Part shown: positions 1-17,384 of the stretch, piece after piece | Position numbering within the stretch: position 1 is the stretch's first letter | How the letters are laid out: the number at the start of each line of letters is the position of its first letter | IMG/VR virus record: IMGVR_UViG_3300033143_004212 | Coordinates: 1 to 64,000 of that record | Strand: one strand, 5' to 3' | DNA from: a virus | DNA length: 64,000 bases | The notes under the pieces: generated by a model | Told to the model about the DNA's origin: nothing | Databases searched by the model: none | Seen by the model: only the letters and a program-made list of their open reading frames with translations | Made by a program: the position numbers and the translations under genes

Positions 1-31
1 AATTTCATTCGAACTGCATTGGAGGTAGAGT

Positions 32-379
32 ATGAAACAGTGCATAACAGATAAACAATTTATTGAATTTGTAAAACCAAATGGTATTTATGATAATAAT
101 AGAATAACAGCTTTACGGAAATTATTAAAATTAAAAGACAATGAAGTATTATCATCTTTATTATTTAATATAGGTAAAATGATAGAAATGTTAGGGCATA
201 AATTATTCTTTATAGGTCATAATCCGGAATTTACATTTAATAATGTAAATAAACCACATTTTGGAGTTTTATTAAAAAGAGATAATGATGAGAATGGGGA
301 TAAAAAATTTGAATTTAAATCAAAAGAGCTTTGTGATGCATTATGGGAAGCGATAGAAGAAATATCAGATTGCATTTAA
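32..379 (+). CDS. Hypothetical phage protein (115 aa; ends ELCDALWEA)
   Basis: GGAGG RBS; stop codon lies inside the inter-gene motif. Confidence 0.8.
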   Translation: MKQCITDKQFIEFVKPNGIYDNNRITALRKLLKLKDNEVLSSLLFNIGKMIEMLGHKLFFIGHNPEFTFNNVNKPHFGVLLKRDNDENGDKKFEFKSKELCDALWEAIEEISDCI

Positions 380-400
380 ACCGCACTGGAGGATATTATA

Positions 401-592
401 ATGAGAAAAGTTATTGTATTAATAGTAAGACTTAGAGAAAGGACAGCAGAAGGAGAACCTATATTACTTCGTTCTTATATATGTGATGAAAATAAAGTTA
501 ACCTTCAGGCTCCCATGATTAAAGACATAATTAGAGTAGAAAAAGAGTATAACGGAACTGTTATTAATTGGTTCTTTGCATATTCAGAATAA
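401..592 (+). CDS. Hypothetical protein (63 aa)
   Basis: GGAGG RBS after the motif; stop inside the next motif. Confidence 0.75.
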   Translation: MRKVIVLIVRLRERTAEGEPILLRSYICDENKVNLQAPMIKDIIRVEKEYNGTVINWFFAYSE

Positions 593-612
593 AACTGCAT
601 TGGAGGTGCGTT

Positions 613-930
613 ATGAAATTCAGAGAAGTGATAACTAAAGATGGAGGACATTGGATAGAGTGTAAGAAACATTGGTGGAATAAATGGGAAGAAACATTAG
701 CAGAAGAATTAGAATTTATTAAAGTTAGGAAATGAAGGATGTTTAGAGTGATATTCTTTTCTCTTGGCTTATTTGCCAATATTAAATCCCGTTATGACCG
801 CATGAGCACAGCAGAATTAATATTAATGATAGTAGGATGGATAATAATAATCTTAGTGATAGGACTAATAGGACTAATAGGAATCTCATGTTTAGGAAAG
901 TTTTATGGCTTTCTTATAACAATATTATAG
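613..930 (+). CDS. Hypothetical membrane protein, read through TGA 733 (may be two small genes)
   Basis: GGAGG RBS + ATG 613, in frame with track ORF 739-930; hydrophobic C-terminus. Confidence 0.5.
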
Positions 931-976
931 TATTATTAATGTTAAATAATTCCATTCAAACTGCAGGAGGTGTATT

Positions 977-1126
977 ATGAAAAGAGATGATATATTAATA
1001 GTAATATTATTAATTTTATGAATAATTACATGGTTCGTAGGAATGAGTTTTATAATGGGAAGTTTTTTAAATGCAGTTATAGTGACGGGTATCATAGTAT
1101 TATTAATGTTAAGTATTTACGATTAA
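977..1126 (+). CDS. Small 2-TM membrane protein (49 aa, TGA=Trp at 1019); missed by ORF track
   Basis: GGAGG RBS; MKRDDILIVILLIL[W]IITWFVGMSFIMGSFLNAVIVTGIIVLLMLSIYD; TAA inside the next motif. Confidence 0.75.
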
Positions 1127-1146
1127 ACCGCATAAGAGGAGATAAT

Positions 1147-1467
1147 ATGAATAAAGAAGATTATAAAAATAAATGGCAATACAGTGAAGATGAAAGACCA
1201 AAAGGTTGTTGTTATGATTGTAGAATGAAATATGATCAATTCCCAGATATGATTATACCAGATGTTCTTTGGGAATTAATAAATCCAACTAAGATTGAAG
1301 GTGCAGGATTATTATGCCCAACATGTATTGCGAATAGATTAGATTTTTTAGGTATATGGTATGATTTACAAAATAAATTATGTAAATTACCTTGTAAGAG
1401 AAAACATAAGAAGAGGGATTGGAGAATTAGACCTATTTTAGAAGTAATAGAAATAAAACAATGGTAG
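1147..1467 (+). CDS. Hypothetical protein with CxxC...CxxC (probable Zn-binding)
   Basis: AGAGGAG RBS before ATG 1147; CYDC and CPTC motifs. Confidence 0.75.
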   Translation: MNKEDYKNKWQYSEDERPKGCCYDCRMKYDQFPDMIIPDVLWELINPTKIEGAGLLCPTCIANRLDFLGIWYDLQNKLCKLPCKRKHKKRDWRIRPILEVIEIKQW

Positions 1468-1610
1468 AAGATTCCATTTAAACCGCATTCTTTTCACTCT
1501 TGGCGCATTTAATCTCATCCAGTTTGTTTCCACGAGATAGATTGGGAGACATAATATATATTAAAATCAGTCTGCAATCACAATTGAACCGCATTGAAAG
1601 GAAGTGTCAC

Positions 1611-1736
1611 ATGAAAAAGAAAGAAATAATGTTATCATTATTATCATACTATTTTATCATTTTATCAGGTCTTACAGGATCTGTATGTATGCTTTTTATT
1701 GCTGTTATTTTATTTATTATAATGATAAATTCTTAA
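1611..1736 (+). CDS. Small hydrophobic membrane peptide (41 aa)
   Basis: GAAAGGA RBS after motif copy 1578. Confidence 0.6.
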   Translation: MKKKEIMLSLLSYYFIILSGLTGSVCMLFIAVILFIIMINS

Positions 1737-2338
1737 TAGCTAATTGCATTTAAACCGCATGCTTTTATATAAAACCTACCCTACGAAGTAGGTAGGAAGT
1801 ACAAAGAACAACGAGGGTCTGCAATAAAAACAGACTGTTTATTGAAAAAAGCTATTGCGGAGGATGGAACCCCAATCATCAATTGCATTCAAACCGCACA
1901 TTTTTATATAACCTATCTCTTAAAAGAGATAGAAAGGATATAGAATAACAGAGGTCTGCAAATAAAAATGCCAAAACTAGTGGTCGCAAGGATGGAACCC
2001 TCGCTCACCTTCCCACCATTTACCAATCTCATTTCTAGCGCACTAATGTTTTGCTCTTGGAGGGAGAAACGCGAAGCGTTTATCACGATATAACTCATTC
2101 CTCTGGATTTATTTACTTCACGAGAAAAAAAATCTCGTATATTATATTATAGTACGTATATTTGGGGATGCGGGGCAGAAGCCCCTTATCCTTTATGTTT
2201 TTTTACTCTACGAGATGATTAATCCCGTATAAGGTTTAAAATTTTTATATAGATAATTTTCTGATTTATTTTTATAATTATTATGAAAAGTAACTGGTGT
2301 AATATTATAATTTTCTGCCCAAAATTTATGGGATTTAC

Positions 2339-2367
2339 TTGACATTTGTTTTTAAATATGTTATAAT
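2339..2367 (+). promoter_or_regulatory. Consensus sigma-A promoter
   Basis: TTGACA-17-TATAAT with extended TG. Confidence 0.85.
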
Positions 2368-2406: not shown

Positions 2407-2568
2407 ATGTTTAGGACTATTAAATTAGAATTAGAAAGAGAACTAAGATTAGCTAAGAAAGAATTAAAGAAAGATAATTTATCTGTAGAAGATAAAAATT
2501 ATGCATGGGGTTATAGAGATGCACTAGAAAGACTTCTAGATATGATAAATAAAGGATATATAGGATAG
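2407..2568 (+). CDS. Hypothetical protein (53 aa); below ORF-track cut-off
   Basis: AGGAGG RBS; MFRTIKLELERELRLAKK...YAWGYRDALE. Confidence 0.75.
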   Translation: MFRTIKLELERELRLAKKELKKDNLSVEDKNYAWGYRDALERLLDMINKGYIG

Positions 2569-2581
2569 GGAGGTAAAAGAA

Positions 2582-2803
2582 ATGACAGTTTCATTTTATA
2601 TTGATTTAGAAGATTTAAGTTTATTTAAATTAGGACATCCTTGTAATATTTCGGTTAGTACAGGAGCAATATTAATTACACTTGATATTGGAGATGTGAA
2701 AGAACTTATGACAGATAATGGTCCTAATCGTTATAATTATTCACAGATACAATTAACAAAACAAGGACGAGATAAAGTATTAGGAGTGAAAATACCATGC
2801 TAG
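2582..2803 (+). CDS. Hypothetical protein (73 aa)
   Basis: GGGAGG RBS; operon context. Confidence 0.7.
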   Translation: MTVSFYIDLEDLSLFKLGHPCNISVSTGAILITLDIGDVKELMTDNGPNRYNYSQIQLTKQGRDKVLGVKIPC

Positions 2804-2949
2804 CTAAATATAAAGAAGATAAACGAATTTATGAAATATATGGAGTCAGAATTTTGGATGATGAGGACGTAGAGTTTTACATATGTACTCATGAAAAGAA
2901 AGTCTGAATGTGGATTGATTCACGAGAGTTTGAACCTTATAGAAGATAG
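2797..2949 (+). CDS. Hypothetical protein (50 aa, TGA=Trp at 2905)
   Basis: AGGAG RBS; ...HEKKV[W]MWIDSREFEPYRR; fills the gap to the next gene. Confidence 0.65.
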
Positions 2950-2958
2950 GAGAGTTGT

Positions 2959-3201
2959 ATGAAAATAAGAGAGAGTGCGATTATTAGAAGTGAAATAAAA
3001 GAATGTAAAGTTGGAGATGTTATTAAAGATATGAATGGTTATTATTTAGTTATTCAGACTGGATTAACTTTTTCATTATTAAATTTAAGAACTAATCAAA
3101 CATATTTAAGTAGAGCGATACTAAAAGAATTATACGATGCTTTCCATGGATCTAGAGATGAGCTTGTAAAGGCTGAAGTAATTATAGAAAGGATAATATA
3201 A
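2959..3201 (+). CDS. Tandem paralog 1 (80 aa)
   Basis: Shares VGD.I.D...YYLVI...LL.L pattern with the next two ORFs. Confidence 0.8.
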   Translation: MKIRESAIIRSEIKECKVGDVIKDMNGYYLVIQTGLTFSLLNLRTNQTYLSRAILKELYDAFHGSRDELVKAEVIIERII

Positions 3202-3202
3202 T

Positions 3203-3445
3203 ATGAAGGTAATAAATAAAATAGGCGTAAGAACAGAAAAGAAAGCATATCAAGTTGGAGACGTTATTTGTGATAAGGGAGATTATTATTTAGTCATTGA
3301 GTTATCTGAAAAGTATGCATTATTAGATTTAGATGATTGCAGAATACTTACTCCTAAAGATACTTTAGAAGGATTATATGATCTTTATCATAATGATGAA
3401 GAAATAGTTGCGGATGCAGAAATAACTTTAATAGGAAGGAAATAG
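3203..3445 (+). CDS. Tandem paralog 2 (80 aa)
   Basis: Same pattern. Confidence 0.8.
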   Translation: MKVINKIGVRTEKKAYQVGDVICDKGDYYLVIELSEKYALLDLDDCRILTPKDTLEGLYDLYHNDEEIVADAEITLIGRK

Positions 3446-3446
3446 T

Positions 3447-3695
3447 ATGAAGATAACATATGGAGGAGTTAGACACGACGAAGTAACAGAGTACAAAGTT
3501 GGAGATATTATTTATGATGGAAATGAATATTATTTAGTTATTAAGCATGGTGAAGCTTACGCATTACTATCTTTAGAATCAAATGCGATTGCTAGTCAGT
3601 TTGAAAAAACATTAGAGAGATTATATAGGATGCAAGGTAGTGACTTAGATAGACTTGTAAAAGCTGAATTAGTTGTGGAAGGAGAAGAGAAATAA
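3447..3695 (+). CDS. Tandem paralog 3 (82 aa)
   Basis: Same pattern. Confidence 0.8.
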   Translation: MKITYGGVRHDEVTEYKVGDIIYDGNEYYLVIKHGEAYALLSLESNAIASQFEKTLERLYRMQGSDLDRLVKAELVVEGEEK

Positions 3696-4022: not shown

Positions 4023-4204
4023 TTTCCTGCTTTTTTGGGAAAAATCTATAGTAAAATACAAGTACAGATATCTTATCAATATCTGTATTTTGCGTGGCAT
4101 CTTGGGGTCGGTGTATTTTCGCAATAAAAAAAGAGAGGAAGATAAGTCCACCGGAGTATTATCTCCTCTGTACCCACCTTATACTCTCTTTAATAATTAT
4201 ATTA

Positions 4205-4447
4205 CTATGCTTCTTCTATTACCTCTGCTTCTGCTTCGTCTTCGATTACTACTTCTAATCTTTTAGTTTTAACGATTACTTTAACAACGATATCTAATTC
4301 TCCATCTCTTACTAAGAACTCTCCACTAGATAAATCTACTAAGATTTCATCTTCTCTAGCTTCAAAACCTTTTGCAAGTCTAGCTTTAACATCCTCACGT
4401 GCTTTTGTTGCGATTTCTTTTTTAGTTAATTCTTTAATAACAGCCAT
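4205..4447 (-). CDS. Small acidic protein (family shared with 6229-6465 and 8728-9000)
   Basis: GGAG RBS; own promoter TTGACT-17-TATAAT at 4536-4508. Confidence 0.8.
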   Translation of the reverse strand: MAVIKELTKKEIATKAREDVKARLAKGFEAREDEILVDLSSGEFLVRDGELDIVVKVIVKTKRLEVVIEDEAEAEVIEEA

Positions 4448-4556
4448 TTTGCACCTCTCCTTTTGTATTTTTTTTATTTTTTATTTTCTTTCCCTTAACT
4501 TACTTATATTATAACATATCTTCTCCCGAAAGTCAATAATAATTCTTAAAAATTTA

Positions 4557-4823
4557 TTAATTTCCGTAGGAAATTCTAATTGATTCTTCACGATGGATAT
4601 AATGGGAACCTTTATCTTCAAGATCTTTTATTTCAATTACTAAATCACTTCTTTCATACATACAGTAGATACCAATTTGTGCCATCCCTGCAACATATAA
4701 GTAATATAGTTTTAAAGCTTCTGCTTCAGTCCTTGCAACAAAAGTGATGATACCTCTTCCATTATAATCTTCATCCTCAGTTCCATATTCTTTAAATAGA
4801 TAACTAATTTTAAATTTTTTCAT
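4557..4823 (-). CDS. Hypothetical protein
   Basis: AAGGAG RBS; promoter TTGACT-17-TATAAT at 4878-4850. Confidence 0.75.
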   Translation of the reverse strand: MKKFKISYLFKEYGTEDEDYNGRGIITFVARTEAEALKLYYLYVAGMAQIGIYCMYERSDLVIEIKDLEDKGSHYIHREESIRISYGN

Positions 4824-5191
4824 TTTTCCCATCTCCTTTATCTATATATATTATATCATATCTTTACGTAAAAGTCAAGGGTTTTTTATAAGTATTTTCC
4901 TGGACATACGCCTTTTATAGCTAGTAAAGTGGTCGGGTAGAATTTCTGGAAGATTATGTAAATGGGGTCGGTGTAGGAGCGGTGTATAAAAATCCTGGTC
5001 GTGATGAGGGTCGGTGTAGGAGGGTCAAGGGGTCGGTGTATTAAGTTTTTATTTTGTATGTCAAGGGGTCGGTGTATTTTAGGGGTCGGTGTATTCCTAT
5101 ACTACGCCGATATCGGTGTACTACACCGCATTATCCGGTGTACCAATGAACAGAAAAAAATAGGAAGTAACTTCCTATTTTTCCTTAATTC

Positions 5192-5509
5192 TTAATTTTC
5201 ATTTAATTCGTCGAATGCGTCTAAAGTTAATTCTGATGTATTTCCAACTTCTACCAATCCTGTTTTTACTAATACTAAACGTTCTGCATTACTAATGTAG
5301 GTAAAAATAACTTTAACGTATTCATTTATTTGGATATAATCAGTACCGTAAATTACTCCATCAATTTCATCAAATTCCATAAGCTTTTTAACAAGGTCTC
5401 TAAATTCATTGGCTTCTTTTAAACTCATTACTCTTGAACCAATAGTTCCAATATTACCCATTTCTGTTACTCCTTCAAGTCTTACTGCTACTAAATCTGT
5501 AATTTTCAT
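5192..5509 (-). CDS. Hypothetical protein (105 aa)
   Basis: RBS; followed by terminator at ~5155-5182. Confidence 0.75.
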   Translation of the reverse strand: MKITDLVAVRLEGVTEMGNIGTIGSRVMSLKEANEFRDLVKKLMEFDEIDGVIYGTDYIQINEYVKVIFTYISNAERLVLVKTGLVEVGNTSELTLDAFDELNEN

Positions 5510-5522
5510 TTACTCCATCTCC

Positions 5523-5747
5523 TTAATAAGTGTAAATACTTTCCAATATTCTTACATGTACATCTGCATATTTCAAACCTTTTATAAAACCATTAATTTG
5601 TTCATCAATTTTATCATGGTAATTATCTCCAGATAAGATAACTTTATCCTTAACTTCGTCTCGCAATTGTACTGTACAATTCTCGTCTACTCCATCATCA
5701 TCTTGTAAATAATATTTTCTTAATATGATTGTTAATCTCATATTCAT
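5523..5747 (-). CDS. Hypothetical protein (74 aa)
   Basis: RBS and box promoter upstream. Confidence 0.75.
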   Translation of the reverse strand: MNMRLTIILRKYYLQDDDGVDENCTVQLRDEVKDKVILSGDNYHDKIDEQINGFIKGLKYADVHVRILESIYTY

Positions 5748-5953
5748 ATGCTCACTTCCTTTCTATATATATAGTATACCATGATATAGAGGTTTTTACA
5801 ACTATACGGTGTATCATACTTTATTTCCGGTGTATGTCCGGTGTACTATTCCCTTATACACCGTTTCTACACCGAATTCGGTGTACTACACCGGGTTTTA
5901 TCCTCTGATACACCGGGAATACACCGCAACTTAGACGTACAAAAAAAAGGAGA

Positions 5954-6184
5954 CTAAGCCCCTTTTTTTGTAATGATATCCATTAACTTCCTTTTCCCAT
6001 CTTCTACCAAAGCTTCTTGATATTTGATTTCGAGATATCCTTTCCAAGATTGGTAAAAAATGTGTCCTTTGGCAATAGCTTGTTGTTTGGTATAATTTGC
6101 CAAATTATCTTCCACCAAAGTTTTTCTTAATCTACCTTTGGTAGAATTTACCAACTGCTCCACTTTTTTATGAAGTTTCGCCAT
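5954..6184 (-). CDS. Hypothetical basic protein
   Basis: GGAGAGG RBS; terminator downstream. Confidence 0.7.
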   Translation of the reverse strand: MAKLHKKVEQLVNSTKGRLRKTLVEDNLANYTKQQAIAKGHIFYQSWKGYLEIKYQEALVEDGKRKLMDIITKKGA

Positions 6185-6228
6185 TATTACCTCTCCTTCC
6201 ATTTAGATGGAGAATAGGGAATAAATCC

Positions 6229-6465
6229 CTATTCGATAAAATCTACTTCTAAGATTCTGTCTTTTTTTTCAACTACTCTGAAAACGAAATCTTTTTTATC
6301 TCCCTTTTCATTTTCAAATTCTAGCACGATTCCTTCTTTGGTAAATTTTACCTCTTGCTCAAATTCTTCTGCAAGTAAGTTTGCAAGCTTTTCAAGTAAT
6401 TCGTCTCTTTTTGTAACTTTTACATTGATTTGCTTAGTTTTTGTATTCTTAACTAGTTTAGCCAT
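6229..6465 (-). CDS. Small protein (family shared with 4205-4447 and 8728-9000)
   Basis: AGGGAG RBS; stop fused to the shared terminator. Confidence 0.8.
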   Translation of the reverse strand: MAKLVKNTKTKQINVKVTKRDELLEKLANLLAEEFEQEVKFTKEGIVLEFENEKGDKKDFVFRVVEKKDRILEVDFIE

Positions 6466-6672
6466 TTATTTCACTCCCTTTATATAGTTTGTTATCTCTT
6501 ATCTATAACTAATTATACCATATATATACCTATTATTCAACTGTCCGGTGTATTTAGGGTGCGGTGTATACTTGAGTGCGGTGTATACTTGAGTGCGGTG
6601 TATAAGTAGAATAAGTGCGGTGTATCGGCAAAGTGTGGGGCATACGCCGACCCTATGCTATAAAAAAAAGAG

Positions 6673-7401
6673 CTAGTAAAGCTCTTTATGAATTTTTGCC
6701 ACTATTCGCCAAGGTTGGTTAATAATTCCTTTTGTGAATTTTTTGTGTTGTCTGTAACATTTTGCCATTATTGCCACTTCTATCTCTGTATCACTTAAAG
6801 CAGTGTGATTCTCAGAAAATTCCATATCTCCTGTAATATACCTATATCCAACTTCTGCATTTGTTAGTGGATTACATCCTTTAGTGTAAAGACCTAACTG
6901 ATTTACCATAAGATGGAAGCCTTTCTGAATATAGAGAGTTTCACAAGCTAATCCCCATATATCCTGTAATTTTACAGAAAATCTTAAAAACTTTTTACTT
7001 TCCTTAGAGCCGAATTGAGAATGTAAATATCTGGTAGTTGCTTTTAATGCTCGAATATCAAAACTGAGATTATATGCCAAAACTTCCTTTACATTCCATT
7101 TCTCTAATAAATCGTTAAATTCTTTTTTAGCTACTTTAAAAGGTACTTTACGCATTAAACGATTGGTAATTTTTTCCACATACATTGGTCGCTTACTTCC
7201 ATAATATGCCGAATTCATCATTTTTTTATTGTCAAAAATTTCCTTTATTACCCAATCTTTCTGTGCATAAATTTTACCTCGTTTGTCAGTAATTGTCACT
7301 CCTAAATCATATACCAAAGGGCTATCAAAGCAGCCTGCCGTCTCGGTGTCAAAAACTGCCAAATATTTCACTCTTTTATCATATTTTCCTTTTTTTGTCA
7401 T
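6673..7401 (-). CDS. DEDDh 3'-5' exonuclease
   Basis: Motifs FDTETAG, AYNLSFD, HTALSD. Confidence 0.85.
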   Translation of the reverse strand: MTKKGKYDKRVKYLAVFDTETAGCFDSPLVYDLGVTITDKRGKIYAQKDWVIKEIFDNKKMMNSAYYGSKRPMYVEKITNRLMRKVPFKVAKKEFNDLLEKWNVKEVLAYNLSFDIRALKATTRYLHSQFGSKESKKFLRFSVKLQDIWGLACETLYIQKGFHLMVNQLGLYTKGCNPLTNAEVGYRYITGDMEFSENHTALSDTEIEVAIMAKCYRQHKKFTKGIINQPWRIVAKIHKELY

Positions 7402-7638
7402 TATACCACTTCCTTCCAAATTCGTTTCGCTTGGCGTTCTCTATCTATAACTAATTATAGCATAGATAAGTGAATACTTCAAGTGTCCGGTGTATCTTGC
7501 TTGCGGTGTACTTCCGGTGTATTTCCGGTGTATTTTTAAAGAAAAAAATACATACACCGATTATACACCGAATTCGGTGTACTACACCGTAAGTTGCGGT
7601 GTACTGGTAAAATAAAAAAAATAGGGAATTAATCCCTA

Positions 7639-7974
7639 TTAACATGTAGTATTGTAAACAGTTAAAGTTACATCATAATCATTTTCTTCTAATAATTGGA
7701 ATTTCATAATGTGTAAATGCGTTCTTAATTCAAGTACAGATTCTTTAAAATCATTAGCAGATATAAAGTGCATTGGTTCGTCTGTTCCATCGTCAACAGT
7801 TATTATAAATAATAAATCCATTCCTGAAATGCTTTCCCATGTAAAAGTAACGGTAATAATATTTCTAGGGTCATCTATTGAAACACCATAAAAGCGACCA
7901 CCATCAATTTCACTATTTAAAATTTTATCTAAAATATCGTAATAAGTAATTTCTGGTAATTTTAAACTTAACAT
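7639..7974 (-). CDS. Hypothetical protein (111 aa)
   Basis: AAGGGAG RBS; terminator follows. Confidence 0.7.
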   Translation of the reverse strand: MLSLKLPEITYYDILDKILNSEIDGGRFYGVSIDDPRNIITVTFTWESISGMDLLFIITVDDGTDEPMHFISANDFKESVLELRTHLHIMKFQLLEENDYDVTLTVYNTTC

Positions 7975-7978
7975 ACAA

Positions 7979-8470
7979 TTACTCCCTTTCTTTATCTGCT
8001 AATACTTTTGCCATTCTAAAAGCATTTCTAGTTGCTTTTTTTTCTAGTTTAGTCGTATAGTAAAAATAATCCATAAAATCATTAGTAGCATGACAATCTT
8101 CTAAAAAATCCATTTCTTCTTTTTTTAATTCTAAATTGTAATTAAATTCTTCGGGATTATCTAAATAGTCTAACCAATGACCTAATTCATGTAATAGTAC
8201 AAATTCTGCGTAAGATAAATCTTTATTAATTTTTTGTAAAGTATCATATTCTATCCTATTCGTATAAGCGTCTATTGGAAGTTCTTGGAAATCTATTAAT
8301 TCTTCCATACTCATAGATACTCTTTTCCCTTCAATCCAAATACCACAACAGAAACCTTGTGAGAGATAAAGGTCGCCGAAAATTTCGGGATAATCTTTTT
8401 GCATTTTATAAAATAATTCTCGTACTTTAAACATATCTTCTTTTTTTACTATATAATTAGATTCAGTCAT
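7979..8470 (-). CDS. HEXXH zinc metallopeptidase-like protein (ImmA/IrrE-like); paralog of 11378-11860
   Basis: FVLLHELGHWLD ... LEKKA motif. Confidence 0.75.
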   Translation of the reverse strand: MTESNYIVKKEDMFKVRELFYKMQKDYPEIFGDLYLSQGFCCGIWIEGKRVSMSMEELIDFQELPIDAYTNRIEYDTLQKINKDLSYAEFVLLHELGHWLDYLDNPEEFNYNLELKKEEMDFLEDCHATNDFMDYFYYTTKLEKKATRNAFRMAKVLADKERE

Positions 8471-8727
8471 TCCATACACTCCCTTCCTTGTTTTATCCTA
8501 TAACTAATTATACCATATATATTATAATAAAGCAACCCATCGGTGTATTTCCGCCTTCAATCACGTATACACCGCACTTTTATTTTCTCTTGGTACACCG
8601 CAAATACACCGCACTTTTTGTACACCGGACTTTCTGTACACCGCACCATTGTAAAATTACTTGATTAGTGTTATACTATAAGTAGATAAAGAAGTGATAA
8701 TAAACTATAAAAAAGGAAGTGGAGAAA

Positions 8728-9000
8728 ATGACAGTTAAAGAGAAAAGTCAAAAGCAATTAGATAATGAATTAAGAGAAAGCATTAAAATTAGATTGGCAG
8801 AAGGTTTTGAAAATACTGATGAAGAAATGGTAATTGATAATGGTTCTTCATTAATTATTAGAGTTAATGATATTAATGTAGATGTTGAAGTAAAAATTAT
8901 TGTTAAGAAAAATCAATTTGATATTGAAATTGCAGAAGAAGAACCGGAAGAAGAACCGGAAGAAACAACAGAAGAACCGGAAGAAGAACCGGAAGAATAG
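8728..9000 (+). CDS. Small acidic protein with EEPEEE tail; inverted cassette
   Basis: Box promoter on + strand, RBS, shared terminator; similar to 4205-4447. Confidence 0.8.
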   Translation: MTVKEKSQKQLDNELRESIKIRLAEGFENTDEEMVIDNGSSLIIRVNDINVDVEVKIIVKKNQFDIEIAEEEPEEEPEETTEEPEEEPEE

Positions 9001-9020
9001 GGATTTATTCCCTTTCTTCT

Positions 9021-9222
9021 CTTAATTGGGATTTATTGGAAGATAAGTATTTGCTTTCGTAGTGTAATGAAGAATCGGACTAAATAGGTGGAGTTGCGAT
9101 ATCAAAAGGTACACACTAGCTTAACCAAAGTAGCCACCAGTCAAGGGAATCTTTAGGAGGTGCACACTCCTACTGTCTACCGAGCCAAAAGGATACTTAT
9201 CTCCCAGTAAATCCCAATTAAG
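9021..9222 (+). ncRNA. Candidate structured RNA enclosed by a 30-bp inverted repeat
   Basis: 9021-9050 pairs with 9193-9222 (28/30); internal stems GACT/AGTC, GGTGG/CCACC, TAGGAG/CTCCTA; no ORF. Confidence 0.55.
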
Positions 9223-9362
9223 GGATTTTTTTCTTTATGGAATCGTACACCGCATTATCCGGTGTATTTCCTGGTCGCGGTCGGCGTACTACACCGAATT
9301 CGGTGTATTTGCGGTGTAAAGTCGGTGTACTTGTAGGTAAAAAAAAGGAAGGATTTTCCTTT

Positions 9363-10133
9363 TTAGTCAATCCTTTCTATAATCATTTCTACATGCGTAT
9401 CTTCTTTTAAATCAATTCCAAAATCTTCCTCAATAGTATTTTTTATGAATTTAGGAAGATAAAGATTTAAATAAGTAATTTTGTAATTATCTGGTATTTT
9501 TGCAATTAATTCCTGTACTGTAATTGGTAAATAATTTTCTTTTACTTCTCTTTCCCAATTATTAATATATCTGTATTTTAATAAGTAATGAAGAAGATTT
9601 TTATTTGAAGTAATACTTCCCCAATTTTTCTCAAAATCTACAAGATTATCATTTTCTGCCATTTTTACTCTTCTTACAAGTTCTGGATTACTTAGTTTTT
9701 CTTGGGAGCTAACTATCATCATATCACGAATGACGATATATTTTGTATTAATTTTTTCAAATACTTCTTCCCAAAAATTAGAAGGATTGGAATAAGAATA
9801 AATTTCATGTATAATTGATGATAAGACTAAAACACTATTTTCTGTTTTTTCTTTTATGAATGAATCTAAATTATCAGTAAATATAATATCTTGATTATCT
9901 TTTTTTGCTTTTTCTAACATTTCTTGACAAATATCATACCCTATATATTTATAGTTTGGATATGAGAAATACATAGACTGTATAAATTTCAATAAAGTAC
10001 CATCTGCACAGCCATAGTCAAGAAAACTATCTGCATTTATTTTCCCTAAAAAGAACGCTTTTTCATATAATGATTTTTTCATAGCTTCAGTATATTCGTT
10101 TATATCTTTTATTTTATTATCTGTAATTTTCAT
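9363..10133 (-). CDS. Class I SAM-dependent methyltransferase
   Basis: LDYGCADG motif I, IGYDI motif II, LSSIIHE. Confidence 0.8.
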   Translation of the reverse strand: MKITDNKIKDINEYTEAMKKSLYEKAFFLGKINADSFLDYGCADGTLLKFIQSMYFSYPNYKYIGYDICQEMLEKAKKDNQDIIFTDNLDSFIKEKTENSVLVLSSIIHEIYSYSNPSNFWEEVFEKINTKYIVIRDMMIVSSQEKLSNPELVRRVKMAENDNLVDFEKNWGSITSNKNLLHYLLKYRYINNWEREVKENYLPITVQELIAKIPDNYKITYLNLYLPKFIKNTIEEDFGIDLKEDTHVEMIIERID

Positions 10134-10153
10134 AATATATCCTTTCATTGTAA

Positions 10154-10297
10154 TTATTTTACTTCTTCATAATCTTCTCCTGATACCCATTGCATATCTT
10201 TATTAGGAATACGTACTAAATACATTAAATAGAAACCATCAGCGTCAATGTAAATAACTGTAAATTCTTCTTTAGTCTTTTTATTTCTTACTTTCAT
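10154..10297 (-). CDS. Hypothetical protein (47 aa); below ORF-track cut-off
   Basis: AGGAG RBS just downstream of box promoter; MKVRNKKTKEEF...QWVSGEDYEEVK. Confidence 0.7.
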   Translation of the reverse strand: MKVRNKKTKEEFTVIYIDADGFYLMYLVRIPNKDMQWVSGEDYEEVK

Positions 10298-10480
10298 AGT
10301 ATATTCTCCTATCTATAATTAATTATATCATACTATAAAGAAAAATACAATCTTCCGGTGTATAAGACTTCCGGTGTATACTCGGTGTATAAAATATACG
10401 GTGTACTACACCGAATTCGGTGTATGTCCGGTGTAGAATCGGTGTATTGACAGTATAAAAAAATAGGGAATAAATCCCTA

Positions 10481-10945
10481 TTAAGCAACTTCTAGTAATT
10501 CTCTTAGAGTTTCTAAAATATGTTTTTCGTCTTTAGCAACTCCACCATAATTTTCCCATTTTTGTCTAATTTCTTCATTATCATCAAATAATAAACAATC
10601 TTGTAAATTTTTAGTAACATGTTGTTTTGGTGCTCCATACTGAACGCAATGAATTTCTTTTACCATTGGAAAATATTTACTTAACCAAGTTTTTTTATCT
10701 GCTCTGCATTGTGCTTTATATTCATCACTGGCAAACATTGGTAACCATGTAATAACCATAATTTCATATCCTTTAGCTTCCAATTGTTCACATAAACTGT
10801 TTAATTCTACCATATCTACCATTGGTTCAAGTTCATTGAAAATTGATTCAGCACTTCTTAATCTTTCTAGCCACCCATTAAAACCATATAAATTAGCAAC
10901 ATTTCCGTCCATATCAAATGCGATTCTTTTAATTTCTTTAGTCAT
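10481..10945 (-). CDS. HAD-superfamily hydrolase (5'(3')-deoxyribonucleotidase-like)
   Basis: FDMDG motif I, IT motif II, K, LFDDN motif IV. Confidence 0.8.
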   Translation of the reverse strand: MTKEIKRIAFDMDGNVANLYGFNGWLERLRSAESIFNELEPMVDMVELNSLCEQLEAKGYEIMVITWLPMFASDEYKAQCRADKKTWLSKYFPMVKEIHCVQYGAPKQHVTKNLQDCLLFDDNEEIRQKWENYGGVAKDEKHILETLRELLEVA

Positions 10946-10958
10946 TTTTTCCATCTCC

Positions 10959-11186
10959 TTACCATATAATTTGTATTGCATATCTATTATCACTTAATCT
11001 TATAATTGATTCAATCCATCTAATTAATTGTTTATATGTTAAATTTCTATAATGACAATTTTTTTTAGTCCTTCCGTTCCAATAGTAAATAGCATGATTA
11101 TTTTTTGCTCTATTCTCAAAACTAAAACATTTTGCCACTTCTAGCCAATCGTCTTTTCTAGTATAATCTACTCCAAATCTACGCAT
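10959..11186 (-). CDS. Hypothetical protein (75 aa)
   Basis: AAGGGAG RBS, box promoter. Confidence 0.7.
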   Translation of the reverse strand: MRRFGVDYTRKDDWLEVAKCFSFENRAKNNHAIYYWNGRTKKNCHYRNLTYKQLIRWIESIIRLSDNRYAIQIIW

Positions 11187-11377
11187 TGTTTATCGCTCCC
11201 TTTCTATATATATAGTATACCATATTAGATGTAAGTATTCAAGTATCCGGTGTATTATTTATTAAGTCCGGTGTATCTCCGGTGTACAGCTTATCATCGG
11301 CGTACTACACCGAATTCGGTGTATTTGCGGTGTACTTCCGGTGTATTAACAAACAAAAAAAAATAGGAAATTATTTC

Positions 11378-11860
11378 CTATTTTTCATCTGCTAATACTT
11401 TTGCCATTTTATAGGCATTTAAAGTTGCTCTTCTTTCTAATTTGCTAACAGTATAAAGATAGTTAATTAAATCTTCATGAATACAATGGTTTGTTAAAAA
11501 TCTCGAAATTTCTACTTTTTGTTCTGCGTTATATTCAAACTCTTCTGGATTATCTATATAATCTAACCAATGACCTAATTCATGTAATAATACAAATTCT
11601 GCAAAACATAAATCTTTATTAAATTTTTGGTATTCTTTATACCAAGGCATATATATATAATCATATGGAGGATTTAATATCTCATTTAATTCACTTAAGC
11701 TCATATATATTCTTTTAAGTTTAACATCTATGCAACAACGGCAACTTCTCTGAATTGTGAGGTCTCCGAAAATTTTAGGGTAAACATCTTGCATTTTATG
11801 AAATAAATCTATTGCTTTTCTTACGTCTCCTTTTTTTACCAATTCATCAGAATTTCTCAT
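11378..11860 (-). CDS. HEXXH metallopeptidase-like protein; paralog of 7979-8470
   Basis: AEFVLLHELGHWLDY identical to the paralog. Confidence 0.75.
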   Translation of the reverse strand: MRNSDELVKKGDVRKAIDLFHKMQDVYPKIFGDLTIQRSCRCCIDVKLKRIYMSLSELNEILNPPYDYIYMPWYKEYQKFNKDLCFAEFVLLHELGHWLDYIDNPEEFEYNAEQKVEISRFLTNHCIHEDLINYLYTVSKLERRATLNAYKMAKVLADEK

Positions 11861-12003
11861 TTTATTCTCCCTTTCTTGTTTTATCCTATAACTAATTATA
11901 CCATACATATTGGATTATTGCAATATTCCGGTGTATTTATTACAAGTACACCGTAAGTTCCGGTGTATTCTTAGTTTAAAAAAATAGGGAATGATTCCCT
12001 ATT

Positions 12004-12276
12004 TTAATCTTGTATTTCAGTTAAGTATCCTTGTTCTTTATATATTTTAAATAATGTTTCATTACTAAGAAATACCATTAAAAGAAAACCAATTAAATTT
12101 AATACAGGGAAAAGAAAAACTATCATAGATTTTATTTCTGCAAAAAGTTTTTGGGAAATACTTGCATTAGTATAAAATTCATATCCTATTTTCTTAATCT
12201 GTGTATTAAAATCTGCTAATCTAAAGAATGTGTATAATCTGAAACAAACACATATAATTACATATACTCTTAACAT
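12004..12276 (-). CDS. Membrane protein (2 TM)
   Basis: Hydrophobic segments, FPVLNL; GGAGG RBS. Confidence 0.7.
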   Translation of the reverse strand: MLRVYVIICVCFRLYTFFRLADFNTQIKKIGYEFYTNASISQKLFAEIKSMIVFLFPVLNLIGFLLMVFLSNETLFKIYKEQGYLTEIQD

Positions 12277-12482
12277 GATATATTACCTCCAAATATTTTA
12301 TTGTATTTTTCTTTTGTAATAAAAAGAATATTCTCATTTTCATAATCTTGATTGTCAAGAATTTCCAATACTTCTTCTTCTGTAACAACTAACCAACTAT
12401 ACATAACTATCATATCTACATATCTAACAGAAATCATTGTAACCAACATTTGCCTATATTCCATTACTCTTAAAGTTGACAT
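12270..12482 (-). CDS. Hypothetical protein
   Basis: AGGAGG RBS. Confidence 0.65.
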   Translation of the reverse strand: MSTLRVMEYRQMLVTMISVRYVDMIVMYSWLVVTEEEVLEILDNQDYENENILFITKEKYNKIFGGNISC

Positions 12483-12492
12483 AATTTACCTC

Positions 12493-12816
12493 CTACTTAA
12501 ACAAATTAGTATGTTTTACCAATACTATCGAATTGTAATATAATTTTTGGTCACAAGCTGAATATCTAAGAATTAAAGATATTGGAGCATGTTCAAAATT
12601 ATAAGGTAATAAATAAAATTTACAACTGTTTTGAGAAAAACAAACTAAAAATTTATGCCAACTATATTTATCATTCTCTTCAAATTTTACAATATCTCCC
12701 ACAAAAATTGGTTCTCTAGTTTGCTCACATTGTAAGCCAAAAAATACATCTTCCATAATTTTACTATGTTGTATAACTTTCTTAGTCAATTCAAATTCAA
12801 AATTTTCTGTTCTCAT
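12493..12816 (-). CDS. YopX-like protein
   Basis: GL...REPIFVGDIVK resembles the YopX EIYEGDIV motif. Confidence 0.55.
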   Translation of the reverse strand: MRTENFEFELTKKVIQHSKIMEDVFFGLQCEQTREPIFVGDIVKFEENDKYSWHKFLVCFSQNSCKFYLLPYNFEHAPISLILRYSACDQKLYYNSIVLVKHTNLFK

Positions 12817-12950
12817 TTCACACCCTTCCTTTCTATATAATAATTATACCATGATATAGAGGTAAATACAAGTGTCCGGTGTATTCGTCTTTAAATAATA
12901 CTAATACACCGCACGATTGAATAATACTTATATATATGTTATAATTAATT

Positions 12951-13048
12951 ATAGATAAGAGATAGATAACAACAGATAAAATCTGTGAAACACATAAATA
13001 TACCCTTTCTTAGTGGAGGTGGACTGTCGGTGGTCTGCCTTTACTTTC
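12951..13048 (+). ncRNA. Candidate ~100-nt small RNA from a box promoter
   Basis: Complete box promoter at 12905-12945, no ORF downstream, G-U-rich 14-bp hairpin at ~13012-13045. Confidence 0.5.
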
Positions 13049-13154
13049 GTATATATTATACACCGCTTTTTCCGGTGTACTACACCGAATTCGGTGTATT
13101 CCCGGTGTAAGGTCGGTGTACTTATGCTTAAAAAAAACTACCAATAAATGGTAG

Positions 13155-13583
13155 TTAAAATTGTTCTGGTAAATCATCCCAAGCTTTATTAGCTTGTTTT
13201 TCTCTTTCTTTATCTTTTGTTTCCAATAATATCCATTCTGTTCTTCTTCTTGCATGTTTTTCTAAAGCTGTAAATTTTTCTTTTTCTGTTAAATTATTAA
13301 ATCTATTCATATATTCTTCTTGACGACATCCAAATCCTAGGTCTCCTGTAAGTATTGAGTAACATGATGCAGTATAAATTGTTTCTTTATATGCTTCATT
13401 ATATATAAATTTTATATTCATATCAATCAAATATCTACATTTTCCTTTTTTATATGATATTAATCTAATATTTGCTTTTTCAATCCATTTTTTTTCAGAT
13501 ATTTTTATATAAATACAAAAACTAAATGCAGATATAATAATCATTGCAATAAATATATATCCTACTAATTCATTAAAAGCCAT
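13155..13583 (-). CDS. Membrane-anchored hypothetical protein
   Basis: N-terminal TM helix; RBS. Confidence 0.7.
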   Translation of the reverse strand: MAFNELVGYIFIAMIIISAFSFCIYIKISEKKWIEKANIRLISYKKGKCRYLIDMNIKFIYNEAYKETIYTASCYSILTGDLGFGCRQEEYMNRFNNLTEKEKFTALEKHARRRTEWILLETKDKEREKQANKAWDDLPEQF

Positions 13584-13598
13584 TTTGTACCTTCCTTT

Positions 13599-13781
13599 CT
13601 AGTATTTTACGTCCCATCTTAATTTTTCATAATTATAATTAAAAGCGGTGTAACATTTTTTACCATCTATAATCTTTGTAAATGTTTTAGTTTCATCAGT
13701 TGAGATATTTTCTTGATATTCCCATCCTTGACATTTCATTACTTCTAAAAATCTTCTACAAGCATGTTTTACTTTAGCCAT
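13599..13781 (-). CDS. Hypothetical protein (60 aa)
   Basis: AAGGAG RBS, box promoter. Confidence 0.7.
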   Translation of the reverse strand: MAKVKHACRRFLEVMKCQGWEYQENISTDETKTFTKIIDGKKCYTAFNYNYEKLRWDVKY

Positions 13782-13921
13782 AATATCTCCTTTCTATAGT
13801 TATATTATATCATATCACCAATAGAAAAGCAATGCTTCGGTGTATTAATTAGGCTTCGACCGCATTTTCCGGTGTATTCAATCTTTGCTTTTGGCATAAA
13901 AAAATAGGGAATAAATCCCTA

Positions 13922-14565
13922 TTATATAGCTATACATTGTCCTTTATAAAATTTACATCTTCCCGTATCACAAATTTTATATCCATTTTTACTTTTTATT
14001 ATATTATATAAGTTTAAATCTCTTGTTTCATATCCTGCACTATTAAATTCTTTTTTTATTTTCTTTATTTTCGATTCTATTCTATTTTCTTCTTTTATAG
14101 TATTAATTCTTTTTGCAATGCCTTTTTCTTGAATCATAATTATTTGATTTTTATATACAAATATATCTTCAACTTCAAGTAATTTTTTACCAAGCTTAGT
14201 ATCTTTTAACGTTTCATAATTTAGTGTTTCAATTACACTTTGGGGTCATCACAATCTTCTATAAAAAATTTAATTGATGATATAGAAGGTTTTAATTGTA
14301 AAATTTTAATAAAAGATAAATATTTTTTATTATTTATTGAATCGTTTTTAAACTCTTTTTCCAATTCTTGAGAAAGCTCACATATTTCTTCATCCATATA
14401 TCTATATTCACTTACCTCTTGTTCTTTCATAGATTCAATTTTAATAACATAATCTTCATTAAAAAAATAAACTTTTCTTCTTATCCCTTGACCTAAAAAA
14501 TCACATTCTTGTAAGTTGTCTATTTTTTCTTTAGCTTGCTCTCTCAATTTTAAATCTCTTTTCAC
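13922..14565 (-). pseudogene. Protein kinase-like gene split by a 1-nt frameshift near 14240
   Basis: N-part has FLGQGIRRKVY...YVIKIE; other frame continues QSVIETLNY...MIQEK...RDLNLYNI...ICDTG. Confidence 0.7.
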
Positions 14566-14809
14566 GTTTGTCACTCCCCTTCTATATATATAGTATAACA
14601 TATTATAGTAATTATTTCAAGCTTGCGGTGTATCCTGGTCGTAGCCGAGATACTGATAGTGGAGGGTCGGTGTATTAATATGGAAGTTACGGCGTATTTT
14701 CGGTGTACGGGTCGGTGTATTTCCTGCTCGCCCTCGGCGTACCGGTCGGTGTATGTACTTGTCGGTGTACCAGTCGGTGTATTGGGCATAAAAAAAATAG
14801 GGATTATCC

Positions 14810-17199: not shown

Positions 17200-17384
17200 G
17201 ATTTTCCAACTCCCTTTCTGTTAATTATTTCCAATTCGTCCGGTGTAGAAACTGGGCATATCTCCCACTTCCTACCTTAATTATACCATACATTTTCCGG
17301 TAATACAAGACCAAATATGTAAAAAAATAGGCGATTCAAAAAGTATTTTCATATTTACCAGATCTTCCAGTACCTACCAGTTAA

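Follow-up and report, generated by a model that had tools for sequence, protein, structure and literature searches.

A short oriented word at the unit boundaries of a variable gene block in two related phages

The small genes and non-coding units at the start of an 83-kb viral contig are separated by a real, oriented and phage-specific joint, which stands at each boundary and recurs in a related phage where the cargo between the joints has been replaced. The window analysed here is the whole stretch of 64,000 nt (positions 1 to 64,000 of IMG/VR record IMGVR_UViG_3300033143_004212), which starts at contig base 1 of the 83-kb record (estimated to be 56% complete); the relative is a 128-kb contig (84% complete) binned with the metagenome-assembled genome (MAG) of Ca. 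Izimaplasma HR2. Bases 1-2100 are best read as the hypervariable far end of a long operon of accessory genes, and the phage as tailed and large (about 150 kb), with TGA read as tryptophan and transcription by the host RNA polymerase. As to what the word does, our analysis leans, at somewhat less than an even chance, toward a portable joint made up of the word and the ribosome binding site, in the manner of the PeSLs of T4 and the SAS of mycobacteriophages.

An oriented word at every unit boundary

The word, TTNCATTYAAACYGCA with the core RAACYGCA, has nine clear plus-strand copies (J1 to J9) within 1.9 kb. The block that they punctuate is laid out as follows, all on the plus strand:

3..18, plus: J1 (core GAACTGCA), PWM 20.4, then 2 nt, GGAGG and an ATG at 32; the contig begins 2 nt before this copy
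32..379, plus: ORF1, 115 aa, no family; TAA stop within J2
370..385, plus: J2 (AAACCGCA), PWM 25.9; GGAGG 2 nt downstream, ATG at 401
401..592, plus: ORF2, 63 aa, no family; TAA stop within J3
584..599, plus: J3 (left arm weak, core AAACTGCA), PWM 13.1; GGAGG 2 nt downstream, ATG at 613
613..930, plus: ORF3/4, 105 codons if the TGA at 733 is tryptophan; stop-free under code 4
927..945, plus: exact copy of 19 nt from the 3' coding end of ORF5 (1094-1112); remnant of an ORF5-like gene end, 5 nt ahead of J4
950..965, plus: J4 (AAACTGCA), PWM 22.2; GGAGG directly after, ATG at 977
977..1126, plus: ORF5, 49-aa hydrophobic peptide, requires TGA as tryptophan; TAA stop within J5
1117..1132, plus: J5 (AAACCGCA), PWM 22.6; GAGGAG 3 nt downstream, ATG at 1147
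1147..1467, plus: ORF6, 106 aa, a CxxC...CxxC protein of a real family
1472..1487, plus: J6 (AAACCGCA), PWM 25.7, then the non-coding unit 1488-1577 with CTCTTGG and CCACGAGAT words
1578..1593, plus: J7 (GAACCGCA), PWM 21.5; AGGAAG 5 nt downstream, ATG at 1611
1611..1736, plus: ORF7, 41-aa hydrophobic peptide
1744..1759, plus: J8, PWM 25.9, then 6 nt, TATATA and a hairpin; opens the non-coding unit 1760-1882 (z -3.0)
1883..1898, plus: J9, same plan as J8, PWM 25.6; opens the non-coding unit 1899-2026 (z -2.2), a tandem relative of 1760-1882, both bounded by the word
2027..2042, plus: possible decayed copy (12/16), weak; a T-rich stretch and CTCTTGG downstream, as after J6
2120..2195, plus: pair of terminator-like hairpins at which the transcription unit ends
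2339..2367, plus: sigma-70 promoter match, perfect (12/12), of the next operon; right end of the variable block

On the plus strand the pattern [AG]AAC[CT]GCA starts at 11, 378, 592, 958, 1125, 1480, 1586, 1752 and 1891; against these nine, the remaining 81.5 kb of the contig holds eight plus-strand matches, and all those checked lie inside coding sequence. The minus strand has three. When the consensus of the earlier note was allowed up to two mismatches, seven copies were found in 3-1898 and two weak ones elsewhere in the window; shuffled sequences averaged 1.16 and never exceeded 4. The repeat array described in that note is therefore present with nine clear copies, and only its count of ten did not hold: a tenth would have to be the decayed copy at 2027-2042 or a weak match at 787, which is inside an ORF.

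The 8-nt core is almost invariant and the left arm is loose. At all ten coding junctions of the two phages, 0-5 nt (usually 2) separate the core from the Shine-Dalgarno sequence, (A)GGAGG, and 11-17 nt separate it from the ATG, and the word and the ribosome site therefore make up one standard joint of about 24 nt. Between a stop codon and the next start there are 19-46 nt, occupied by the 16-mer and the ribosome site. At 377, 590 and 1124 the preceding gene does stop at the TAA of the word, as had been noticed before, the last case requiring TGA as tryptophan in ORF 977-1126. The accompanying observation that the ribosome site of the next gene follows the word is correct at coding junctions and fails at J6, J8 and J9, which open non-coding units. 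In the two phages together, 5 of the ~16 copies precede non-coding DNA (these three, and those at 9836 and 10204 of the relative), a proportion that counts against a role tied to RNA or to the ribosome site. No hairpins were found in the coding junctions, and in predicted folding the word was unpaired at 0.57 versus 0.47 for controls, a difference within one standard deviation; the earlier description of a short, non-palindromic joint without attC hairpins agrees with an oriented joint that is not preferentially paired.

Several simpler identities for the word were discarded. Against an antisense small RNA, the 83-kb record has no reverse-strand copy outside coding sequence, and the reading frames do not fit a -1 frameshift site (UUUAAAC). 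Pairing to 16S rRNA around helix 30 or helix 45 was discarded too, since the helix 30 region is buried, pairing at helix 45 needs the word 3' of the Shine-Dalgarno, and a match of such length is not unexpected by chance. A phage ribosomal protein S21, a candidate reader 5' of the Shine-Dalgarno, was searched for and none was found. The phage has another short word, TACACCG, with ~100 copies near promoters, some of which read TACACCGCA and differ from TAAACCGCA by one base; AAACTGCA copies and the invariant GCA argue against the two words being the same site.

Cargo, genetic code and promoters

With TGA read as tryptophan, the array consists of six genes and three non-coding units and has one copy of the word per boundary (9/9). 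The junction that seemed to lack a copy disappears under this reading, since ORFs 613-732 and 739-930 form a single frame of 105 codons under code 4 with a TGA between them; the N-terminal part of the product is soluble and its C-terminal part hydrophobic, which gave the appearance of an internal junction without the word. Two of the six genes require TGA as tryptophan, and readthrough is supported by a continuous 1170-residue match to a PHROG DNA polymerase that spans in-frame TGAs. The word thus fits the gene calls made under code 4, which would be broken up by a standard-code caller, and was of help in annotation.

The cargo had been described as small, unrelated proteins, several of them membrane peptides, interspersed with non-coding units, and this picture stands: Pfam gave no match for the array cargo, three of the genes encode hydrophobic peptides, and three units are non-coding. 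The sole PHROG match for the cargo was weak and fell on ORF 1147-1467, whose relatives (56-60% identical) are found in unrelated phages of 40-43% GC. Rfam, at the gathering score and at E<=5, returned nothing meaningful, and a tRNA search across the window found none.

The ORFs also appear to be promoterless as proposed, with 32 sigma-70-like matches inside the array and 26.7 +/- 5.2 in shuffles, i.e., no excess. A host-type promoter would fit at the three non-coding units alone and could not drive the ORFs. Were the word instead a promoter for phage-specific transcription machinery, transcription would start separately for each unit, where the word ends; a start near GCA would give a short leader with a ribosome site, and at three non-coding units in the two phages a TATATA begins exactly 6 nt after the core. 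At coding junctions, however, the -10 falls on the spacer between Shine-Dalgarno and ATG, so that a host-type start would be inside the ORF, and the large proteins checked are replication, repair and structural enzymes. Neither record yielded a sigma-70 region 2 or a T7-type RNA polymerase, the latter search carrying little weight as it was positive in no control genome. We regard such a promoter as very improbable.

The same joint in a related phage

The 128-kb relative is about 74% identical to the 83-kb record at the nucleotide level (67-82% across most of the aligned length). Its homologous operon has five strong junctions, one variant and two decayed ones, with cores at 9111, 9284, 9723, 9836, 9875 and 10204 and decayed copies at ~8893 and 10084, all on the coding strand. 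The two phages have no array gene in common, and no array ORF has a counterpart in the other phage. A comparison of cassette content between relatives, as the earlier note had suggested, revealed a conserved joint with completely different cargo. The operon in the relative is headed by a promoter (TTGACA-17-TATAAT) near 5933, and its first 3 kb have ordinary tight junctions without the word. A second variable slot of the relative contains four copies, two of them on the plus strand and two reversed; a FeoA gene absent from the 83-kb record lies between the reversed ones, which are both antisense to it. One copy lies just beyond a terminator, at 12310-12320.

At its right end the variable block is limited by the promoter at 2339..2367; both this promoter and the word TTCTGCCCA upstream of it are conserved in the relative. 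The next operon (2407-3695, versus 11201-11961 in the relative) is fully replaced and has no copy of the word, so the word is not needed for turnover.

Exact matches number 12 in the 2.1-Mb MAG, eight of them in the 128-kb phage contig, where the word is ~30-fold enriched over the rest of the MAG; with only four matches in the ~1.97 Mb outside that contig, a host-wide signal (Chi-like or an enhancer) was rejected. Scans of IMG/VR with three exact patterns gave only single, chance-level matches apart from the relative. The flanking gene encodes a 248-aa exonuclease-like protein, and among ~90 of its loci in IMG/VR, JGI/ENA metagenome contigs and GTDB genomes the word was present in the Izimaplasma-HR2 contig only, the same sequence being included under three names. 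Homologues of this protein that are 66-74% identical occur on further assemblies, a 7-kb contig at 67% identity stops short of where the array would lie, and blastn of 1-2400 against a phage GenBank collection gave no match.

These comparisons bear on the integron-like reading offered in the earlier note. In the form considered here, cassettes would be inserted and excised at the word by a site-specific recombinase dedicated to it, whose gene would lie in a part of the genome that the record does not cover. In its favor are the promoterless, unrelated cassettes behind one upstream promoter (near 5933 in the relative), the single copy per boundary, and the left part of the word in the relative, GTTAAAC, which matches the core pattern of integrons, GTTRRRY; moreover, a recombinase gene could have been missed in records that are 56% and 84% complete. 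However, a tyrosine or serine recombinase was looked for in the 83-kb record and its 128-kb relative, and none was detected: Phage_integrase (PF00589) had no match in the former (56% complete, left flank missing) or the latter (84%), although 14/14 control genomes were positive, and Resolvase (PF00239), whose search likewise had positive controls, had no match in either (56% and 84% complete, respectively). There are no attC-like inverted repeats and spacers go down to 19 nt, the visible breakpoint is not at the word, and the neighboring operon turned over without it. The homologues of ORF 1147-1467 in the unrelated phages do not carry the word. With neither recombinase, attC-like hairpins, phage RNA polymerase nor sigma factor found in either record, the integron reading is unsupported and seems to us extremely unlikely.

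Models for the joint

A portable joint would work without a recombinase of its own. The block of word and ribosome site would be copied along with the ends of units and spread by duplication, which would leave 13-22 nt of identity between junctions, after which units could be duplicated, lost or swapped among related phages by general recombination; a Sak4-type annealing protein encoded by the phage might take part. Footprints of duplication are seen in the repeat of the ORF5 3' end before J4, in the 22 and 21 nt shared by junctions of the relative, and in the tandem units opened by J8 and J9. That the contig breaks off 2 nt before J1 is a hint of structural variants joined at the word. Since only two genomes carry the word and their cargo is wholly different, no breakpoint of replacement can be placed at the word. 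The sole visible breakpoint, the ORF5-like remnant, is ~23 nt upstream of J4 and hence outside the word, and the identity between copies is short (13-22 nt); both count against the joint model.

The invariant core would probably be kept by a sequence-specific factor that reads it on RNA or DNA. Such a factor would most likely act on the polycistronic mRNA just 5' of the ribosome sites, where the word could be a translational operator or a cleavage point. That the word takes part in recombination, that a factor acts on it in trans and that this happens on RNA are what we infer; no candidate for the factor was found. In a bolder and rather doubtful version of this idea, RAACYGCA would be the address of a dedicated phage trans-factor (an RNA-binding protein, nuclease or small RNA) that gates accessory cistrons singly 5' of their ribosome sites, possibly timed with a switch to UGA as tryptophan, a link suggested by the two of six array genes that need this reading. 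Such a core would amount to a cistron-by-cistron punctuation code on polycistronic mRNA.

An RNA processing or antitermination signal, the second proposal of the earlier note, is possible. In its strict form, a phage or host endoribonuclease or RNA-binding protein would recognize UUYAAACYGCA, cut or gate cistrons and free the non-coding units as small RNAs, and the word would have no part in recombination. Every unit of the array, non-coding ones included, has one copy, and all copies point in the direction of transcription; the core has sharp limits, is the same in two diverged phages and is slightly more unpaired than controls; the non-coding units opened by J8 and J9 are moderately structured; and the phage lineage has genes of the RNA-repair type, e.g., an RNA ligase in the relative. 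These points have to be set against the lack of a nuclease candidate in our search, an accessibility difference that is within one standard deviation, the reversed, antisense copies around FeoA, the copy just past a terminator, and the upstream half of the same operon, whose first 3 kb in the relative work without the word. We consider it unlikely that punctuation of RNA is the whole explanation.

Copies outside the array need no ribosome site, a feature accommodated by a DNA operator or roadblock of the stoperator type, in which a monomeric phage protein would bind the asymmetric site, halt the elongating RNA polymerase and silence or time the block. The site is asymmetric and about 13-16 bp, and, like L5 stoperators (PMC9283540), it is located in short intergenic spaces, sometimes over stop codons, and is oriented with transcription. 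The phage also uses the other short DNA word TACACCG, including its TACACCGCA forms. Yet nine roadblocks within 1.9 kb of one operon would be redundant, no copy overlaps a predicted promoter, the sites are clustered rather than genome-wide, no integrase was found in either record, and the tight phasing with the Shine-Dalgarno is left unexplained, all of which makes this a decidedly unlikely reading.

If a factor does read the word, it offers a way into the control of small host-takeover genes in a recoded phage, and if the portable joint serves recombination only, the array is a recombinase-free example of the shuffling of ORFan genes by phages.

Comparison with known systems

The stoperators of cluster A mycobacteriophages, sites of the L5 repressor, are asymmetric 13-mers in short intergenic spaces whose orientation follows transcription (PMC9283540), and the word described here resembles them in all three respects. 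Stoperators are spread genome-wide in temperate phages with a copy in the early promoter (PMC9283540), whereas the copies in the present phages are restricted to one block of 1-2 kb and one further slot, with none over a predicted promoter and no integrase found.

Integron arrays likewise combine unrelated, promoterless small genes, one upstream promoter and a repeated site at each gene, in line with the absence of a promoter excess in the array and the promoter near 5933 in the relative. They differ in their IntI-type recombinase, which the phage array lacks, and in their attC hairpins of 57-141 bp, in contrast to a linear 16-mer fused to a ribosome site; the setting here is a phage accessory operon.

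Promoter-early stem-loops (PeSLs) of T4-type phages combine a strong sigma-70 promoter with a terminator stem-loop, and their recombination has been shown physically by mini-circles and breakpoints (Arbiol et al. 2010; PMC2839356). As with the word, an intergenic element is conserved and repeated among small genes, mostly ORFans, in a hyperplastic region where close relatives differ by insertion, deletion and replacement, and there is no dedicated recombinase; the shared concept is that of a regulatory element that would double as a recombination joint. PeSLs are longer, and for the phage word a part in recombination is putative. Between the two genomes the cargo is wholly replaced, FeoA is bracketed by reversed copies in the relative, and the visible breakpoint falls ~23 nt short of J4. 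At coding junctions the -10/-35 geometry is not usable, a -10 would overlap the start codon, and a hairpin after the word is carried only by the non-coding units behind J8 and J9.

The SAS of cluster K mycobacteriophages is an asymmetric repeat of 13 bp in 11-19 copies that contains the Shine-Dalgarno core (AGGAG) and stands 3-7 bp before the start codon (Pope et al. 2011; PMC3203893), and its function was still unverified in 2025 (PMC12699233). The sequences are unrelated. Both repeats are short, asymmetric and nearly all in one orientation (nine copies in the 83-kb record, six plus two decayed in the relative), are confined to the non-structural part of the genome, stand directly before gene starts with the upstream stop codon sometimes inside the repeat, and are conserved across related phages before genes of different families while absent from the host. 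The word differs in lying upstream of a separate GGAGG and ending 11-17 nt before the ATG, and a third of its copies precede non-coding units, whereas virtually every SAS precedes a gene start; SAS copies are scattered, whereas the word is packed at consecutive junctions of one block.

Oriented short junction words are thus found in the accessory regions of several large phages (SAS, stoperators and PeSLs), with their function explained for some only. The present case is clean and compact, with one word per boundary, fused to a ribosome site, and cargo that is entirely exchanged between two phages.

Distribution of the junction motif

Copies of the 16-nt junction motif (core RAACYGCA) are concentrated at the left end of the window. 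With up to two mismatches to the consensus, seven copies lie within 3-1898 and two weak ones elsewhere in the 64 kb; shuffled sequences average 1.16 and reach 4 at the most. The first 1.9 kb hold nine + strand copies of the core [AG]AAC[CT]GCA, the remaining 81.5 kb hold eight, and the - strand has three. Scoring with a position weight matrix derived from the copies gave the nine array copies 13-26 bits and never exceeded 15 bits in the rest of the genome. The array that the earlier note counted as ten copies in 1.9 kb is therefore real and above the shuffles, but its clear count is nine, a possible tenth being a decayed remnant. The main features at this end of the genome are:

3..18 to 1883..1898, + strand: motif copies J1 to J9, every one at a unit boundary
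613-930: one 105-codon frame, ORF3 and ORF4 joined via a TGA at 733
977-1126: ORF5, with a TGA at codon 15
1147-1467: the only array ORF with a PHROG match, a weak one
2027-2042: motif remnant, 12 of 16 positions matching
2120-2195: two terminator-like hairpins, closing the array transcription unit
2339: perfect sigma-70 promoter, opening the next operon
2959-3695: three tandem paralogous genes of the next operon (80-82 aa, weak PHROG 7591), with unrelated genes at the matching position of the relative G001

The array comprises six genes and three non-coding units, and its promoter-like sites are no more frequent than in shuffles. The apparently motif-less junction at 732/739 vanishes under genetic code 4, where ORFs 613-732 and 739-930 form a single TGA-joined frame, so that nine of nine boundaries carry the motif, in keeping with the proposed rule of one per gene junction. 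Likewise, the TAA of the motif does end the preceding gene at 377, 590 and 1124, although the last case (ORF 977-1126) requires TGA to encode Trp.

The window covers the first 64,000 bases of a virus contig from IMG/VR (83.4 kb, estimated completeness 56%), and because it begins at the contig start there is nothing to the left of base 1. The contig starts 2 nt before J1; a break there would be expected assembler behaviour if the population differs left of the joint, a weak hint from a single observation. The virus is a large tailed phage that encodes replication functions of its own:

PolC/DnaE-type polymerase
ribonucleotide reductase
DnaB-like helicase
primase
RecJ-like nuclease
Sak4-like annealing protein

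TGA is a sense codon in this phage: the polymerase gives a single unbroken 1170-residue PHROG match spanning in-frame TGAs, and the reductase match also runs through a TGA-containing frame. Two of the six array genes (613-930 and 977-1126) need TGA=Trp and would be broken by a standard-code gene caller; their code-4 calls are consistent with the motif positions.

A related phage keeps the motif and replaces the cargo

The 248-aa exonuclease-like protein encoded at window 6673-7419 (- strand) led to G001, a 127.8-kb phage contig (84% complete) binned with the MAG of Candidatus Izimaplasma bacterium HR2. The two phages are syntenic, with 67-82% nucleotide identity across most of their length. 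The homologous operon of G001 has a canonical promoter near 5933 and about 20 tiny genes, with the motif in its last 1.3 kb at 9111, 9284, 9723, 9836 and 10204; a variant, GAACCGCG, stands at 9875, and there are decayed copies near 8893 and 10084. Each of these lies on the coding strand, and those with a gene behind them are separated from its ribosome site by 2-3 nt. No array ORF has a counterpart in the other phage in either direction (tblastn E<=1, code 4), and alignment here is confined to the promoter block on the right and the final gene of the next operon. Since the array ORFs are unmatched while the motif is common to both, the word was kept and the cargo replaced; the comparison of cassette content between related phages suggested in the earlier note revealed entirely different cargo. 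Within the 2.1-Mb MAG, eight of the 12 exact motif matches lie in the phage contig, and the other IMG/VR, metagenome and GTDB loci examined hold at most a single chance copy. The motif is a feature of the phage, not of the host, and its bearers here are these two genomes only.

A second variable slot lies at 28.53-29.35 kb of G001 (8530-9350 of its stretch L074), equivalent to window 17.75-18.43 kb (17750-18430). In G001 it contains two + strand motif copies (TTTAAACCGCG, TTTGAACCGCG) and two reversed copies whose left arms match the two array subtypes, one of them having 14 consecutive bases in common with the 9111 junction (chance expectation ~0.003). Between the reversed copies lies a 73-aa FeoA gene (Pfam E 6e-19), enclosed from its ribosome site to its stop codon; this gene has its own promoter. 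The window phage has a YunG-like gene at the FeoA position (18034-18396, Pfam PF24591) and only a degenerate motif copy, at 17819.

Array proteins matched no Pfam family. ORF 1147-1467 nevertheless belongs to a real family with members in unrelated phages, and the proposed check of whether homologues elsewhere are flanked by the same motif came out negative for it: its relatives in phages of 40-43% GC lack the word. In L060, a locus of an unrelated phage, the family (CxxC...CxxC) appears within a 215-aa protein as a domain and again in the following 96-aa ORF (5869-6790), a double occurrence that marks it as a widespread small zinc-ribbon-like phage module.

Other repeated words

The heptamer TACACCG/CGGTGTA occurs ~100 times between genes of the leftward module (window 4100-15600, mainly - strand) and is also present in G001; a promoter-proximal copy lies 5 nt before a weak -35 of TATAAT promoters, and some copies read TACACCGCA, one base off the junction core. 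A T-rich stretch plus CTCTTGG is found repeatedly at a distance of 9-11 nt downstream of an ACCGCA word (junction core or TACACCGCA box), at these positions:

window: 1497, 2054, 8587
L073, a stretch of G001: ~10150
G001: ~28700, ~121450

A further recurrent word is TTACTCYACGAGA(T), frequently accompanied by a small hairpin; the window has it at 1530, 2110 and 2205, and L073 10570-11010 contains three copies. The word TTCTGCCCA(A/G)AA lies 17-20 nt upstream of the perfect TTGACA/TATAAT promoter (window 2316-2367), is conserved in G001, where it occurs twice (L073 10890 and 11112-11175), and may be an upstream regulator site for the operon after the array. The large non-coding region separating the leftward and rightward modules contains three to four repeats that resemble iterons, roughly AATTGTGTGTATTGTTTGA (window 17370-17520; L074 8020-8280), and a G-rich block (GGAAGAGGGGGGTAGTT) conserved in G001; the region may act as a replication origin or in packaging.

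How the units may turn over

Integron-like acquisition at the joint, as the earlier note proposed, found no support. Phage_integrase and Resolvase domains, hence the sought tyrosine or serine recombinase, were absent from the 83.4-kb record and from G001 (56% and 84% complete) in searches whose positive controls were detected. In the portion of G001 that has no counterpart in the 83.4-kb contig, the large proteins checked were topoisomerase II, RNA ligase, a GIY-YIG homing endonuclease, a methyltransferase and a DUF2828/VWA protein; the endonuclease gene sits between the two topoisomerase II subunit genes (L075, another G001 stretch, 10885-11730; G001 ~118.9-119.7 kb). The junctions leave no room for attC-like hairpins. 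Furthermore, the neighbouring operon (window 2407-3695 versus G001 11201-11961) is replaced just as completely with no motif at its junctions, so the motif is unnecessary for turnover. For these reasons, and given the motif-less homologues, we do not file the region as integron-like.

Short-homology recombination fits in part, with duplication footprints and the precedent of PeSL in T4-type phages (PMC2839356) in its favour. Immediately before J4, positions 927-945 (19 nt) exactly repeat 1094-1112, the coding 3' end of ORF5 upstream of J5, and the two stretches with their motifs are ~82% identical across 38 nt. At J4 the repeat is read in a different frame and provides the stop of ORF3/4; it is the leftover end of an ORF5-like gene with its motif still attached. 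Junctions 9836 and 10204 of G001 share 22 identical bases, upstream stop codon included, and 9111 and 9723 share 21. Non-coding units 8 and 9 of the window are motif-bounded tandem relatives. Together with the second variable slot of G001 and, weakly, the contig start 2 nt before J1, the footprints look like signs of a block spreading by copying and recombination. A pure homology joint, however, leaves unexplained why only 8 bases are constant and why the neighbouring operon was shuffled motif-free.

Possible readers of the motif

Upstream of genes, the motif was correctly said to precede the next ribosome site: across the 10 coding junctions of both phages, the distance from the end of the core is always 0-5 nt (mode 2) to (A)GGAGG and 11-17 nt (mode 13) to ATG. 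This fixed spacing makes motif and ribosome site a standard block of ~24 nt. Ordinary junctions of the same G001 operon are much tighter (stop-to-start mostly 1-14 nt), so the motif costs ~16 nt per gene. The 8-nt core is invariant and sharply defined, with loose arms, which favours a factor-recognition site; it is identical in both phages although about a quarter of bases differ.

An RNA-level, per-cistron role is favoured by strict co-orientation, by the presence of one motif for each unit and by its constant phase relative to the ribosome site, the logic also applied to the start-associated sequences of cluster K (PMC3203893), whose function is still open (PMC12699233). A role purely in the ribosome site agrees less well: non-coding DNA follows one third of the copies, the reversed pair at FeoA runs antisense to the gene, another copy is located just beyond a terminator (G001 12310-12320), and the first 3 kb of the same G001 operon lack the motif. 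Type A non-coding units (J8 and J9 in the window, 10204 in G001) have the core, exactly 6 nt and then TATATA, and look like descendants of one terminal unit, apparently tandem-duplicated in the window phage. The J8 and J9 units are moderately structured (z -3.0 and -2.2). Predicted RNA structure does not include the motif itself (core unpaired probability 0.57 versus 0.47 +/- 0.22 in controls). As for dedicated transcription or translation factors, neither record contains sigma-70 region 2 (controls detected) or ribosomal protein S21; nor was a T7-type RNA polymerase found, a search that recovered none in any control genome and carries little weight.

A DNA roadblock like the stoperators of cluster A mycobacteriophages (PMC9283540) also fits in part, agreeing with the asymmetry and orientation of the motif but not with nine sites in one short operon.

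Because each single mechanism leaves facts unexplained, we tentatively prefer a combined account, to which we give somewhat less than an even chance. The element would be a portable joint of motif plus ribosome site, copied along with unit ends and offering general recombination 13-22 nt of identity, while its core would be maintained by a sequence-specific reader, most likely acting on mRNA.

Comparison with known systems

Oriented words at gene junctions in phage accessory regions are a kind of element already known. New are the sequence of the motif, its setting in a TGA-recoded phage, its placement upstream of the ribosome site rather than within it, and its use before non-coding units.
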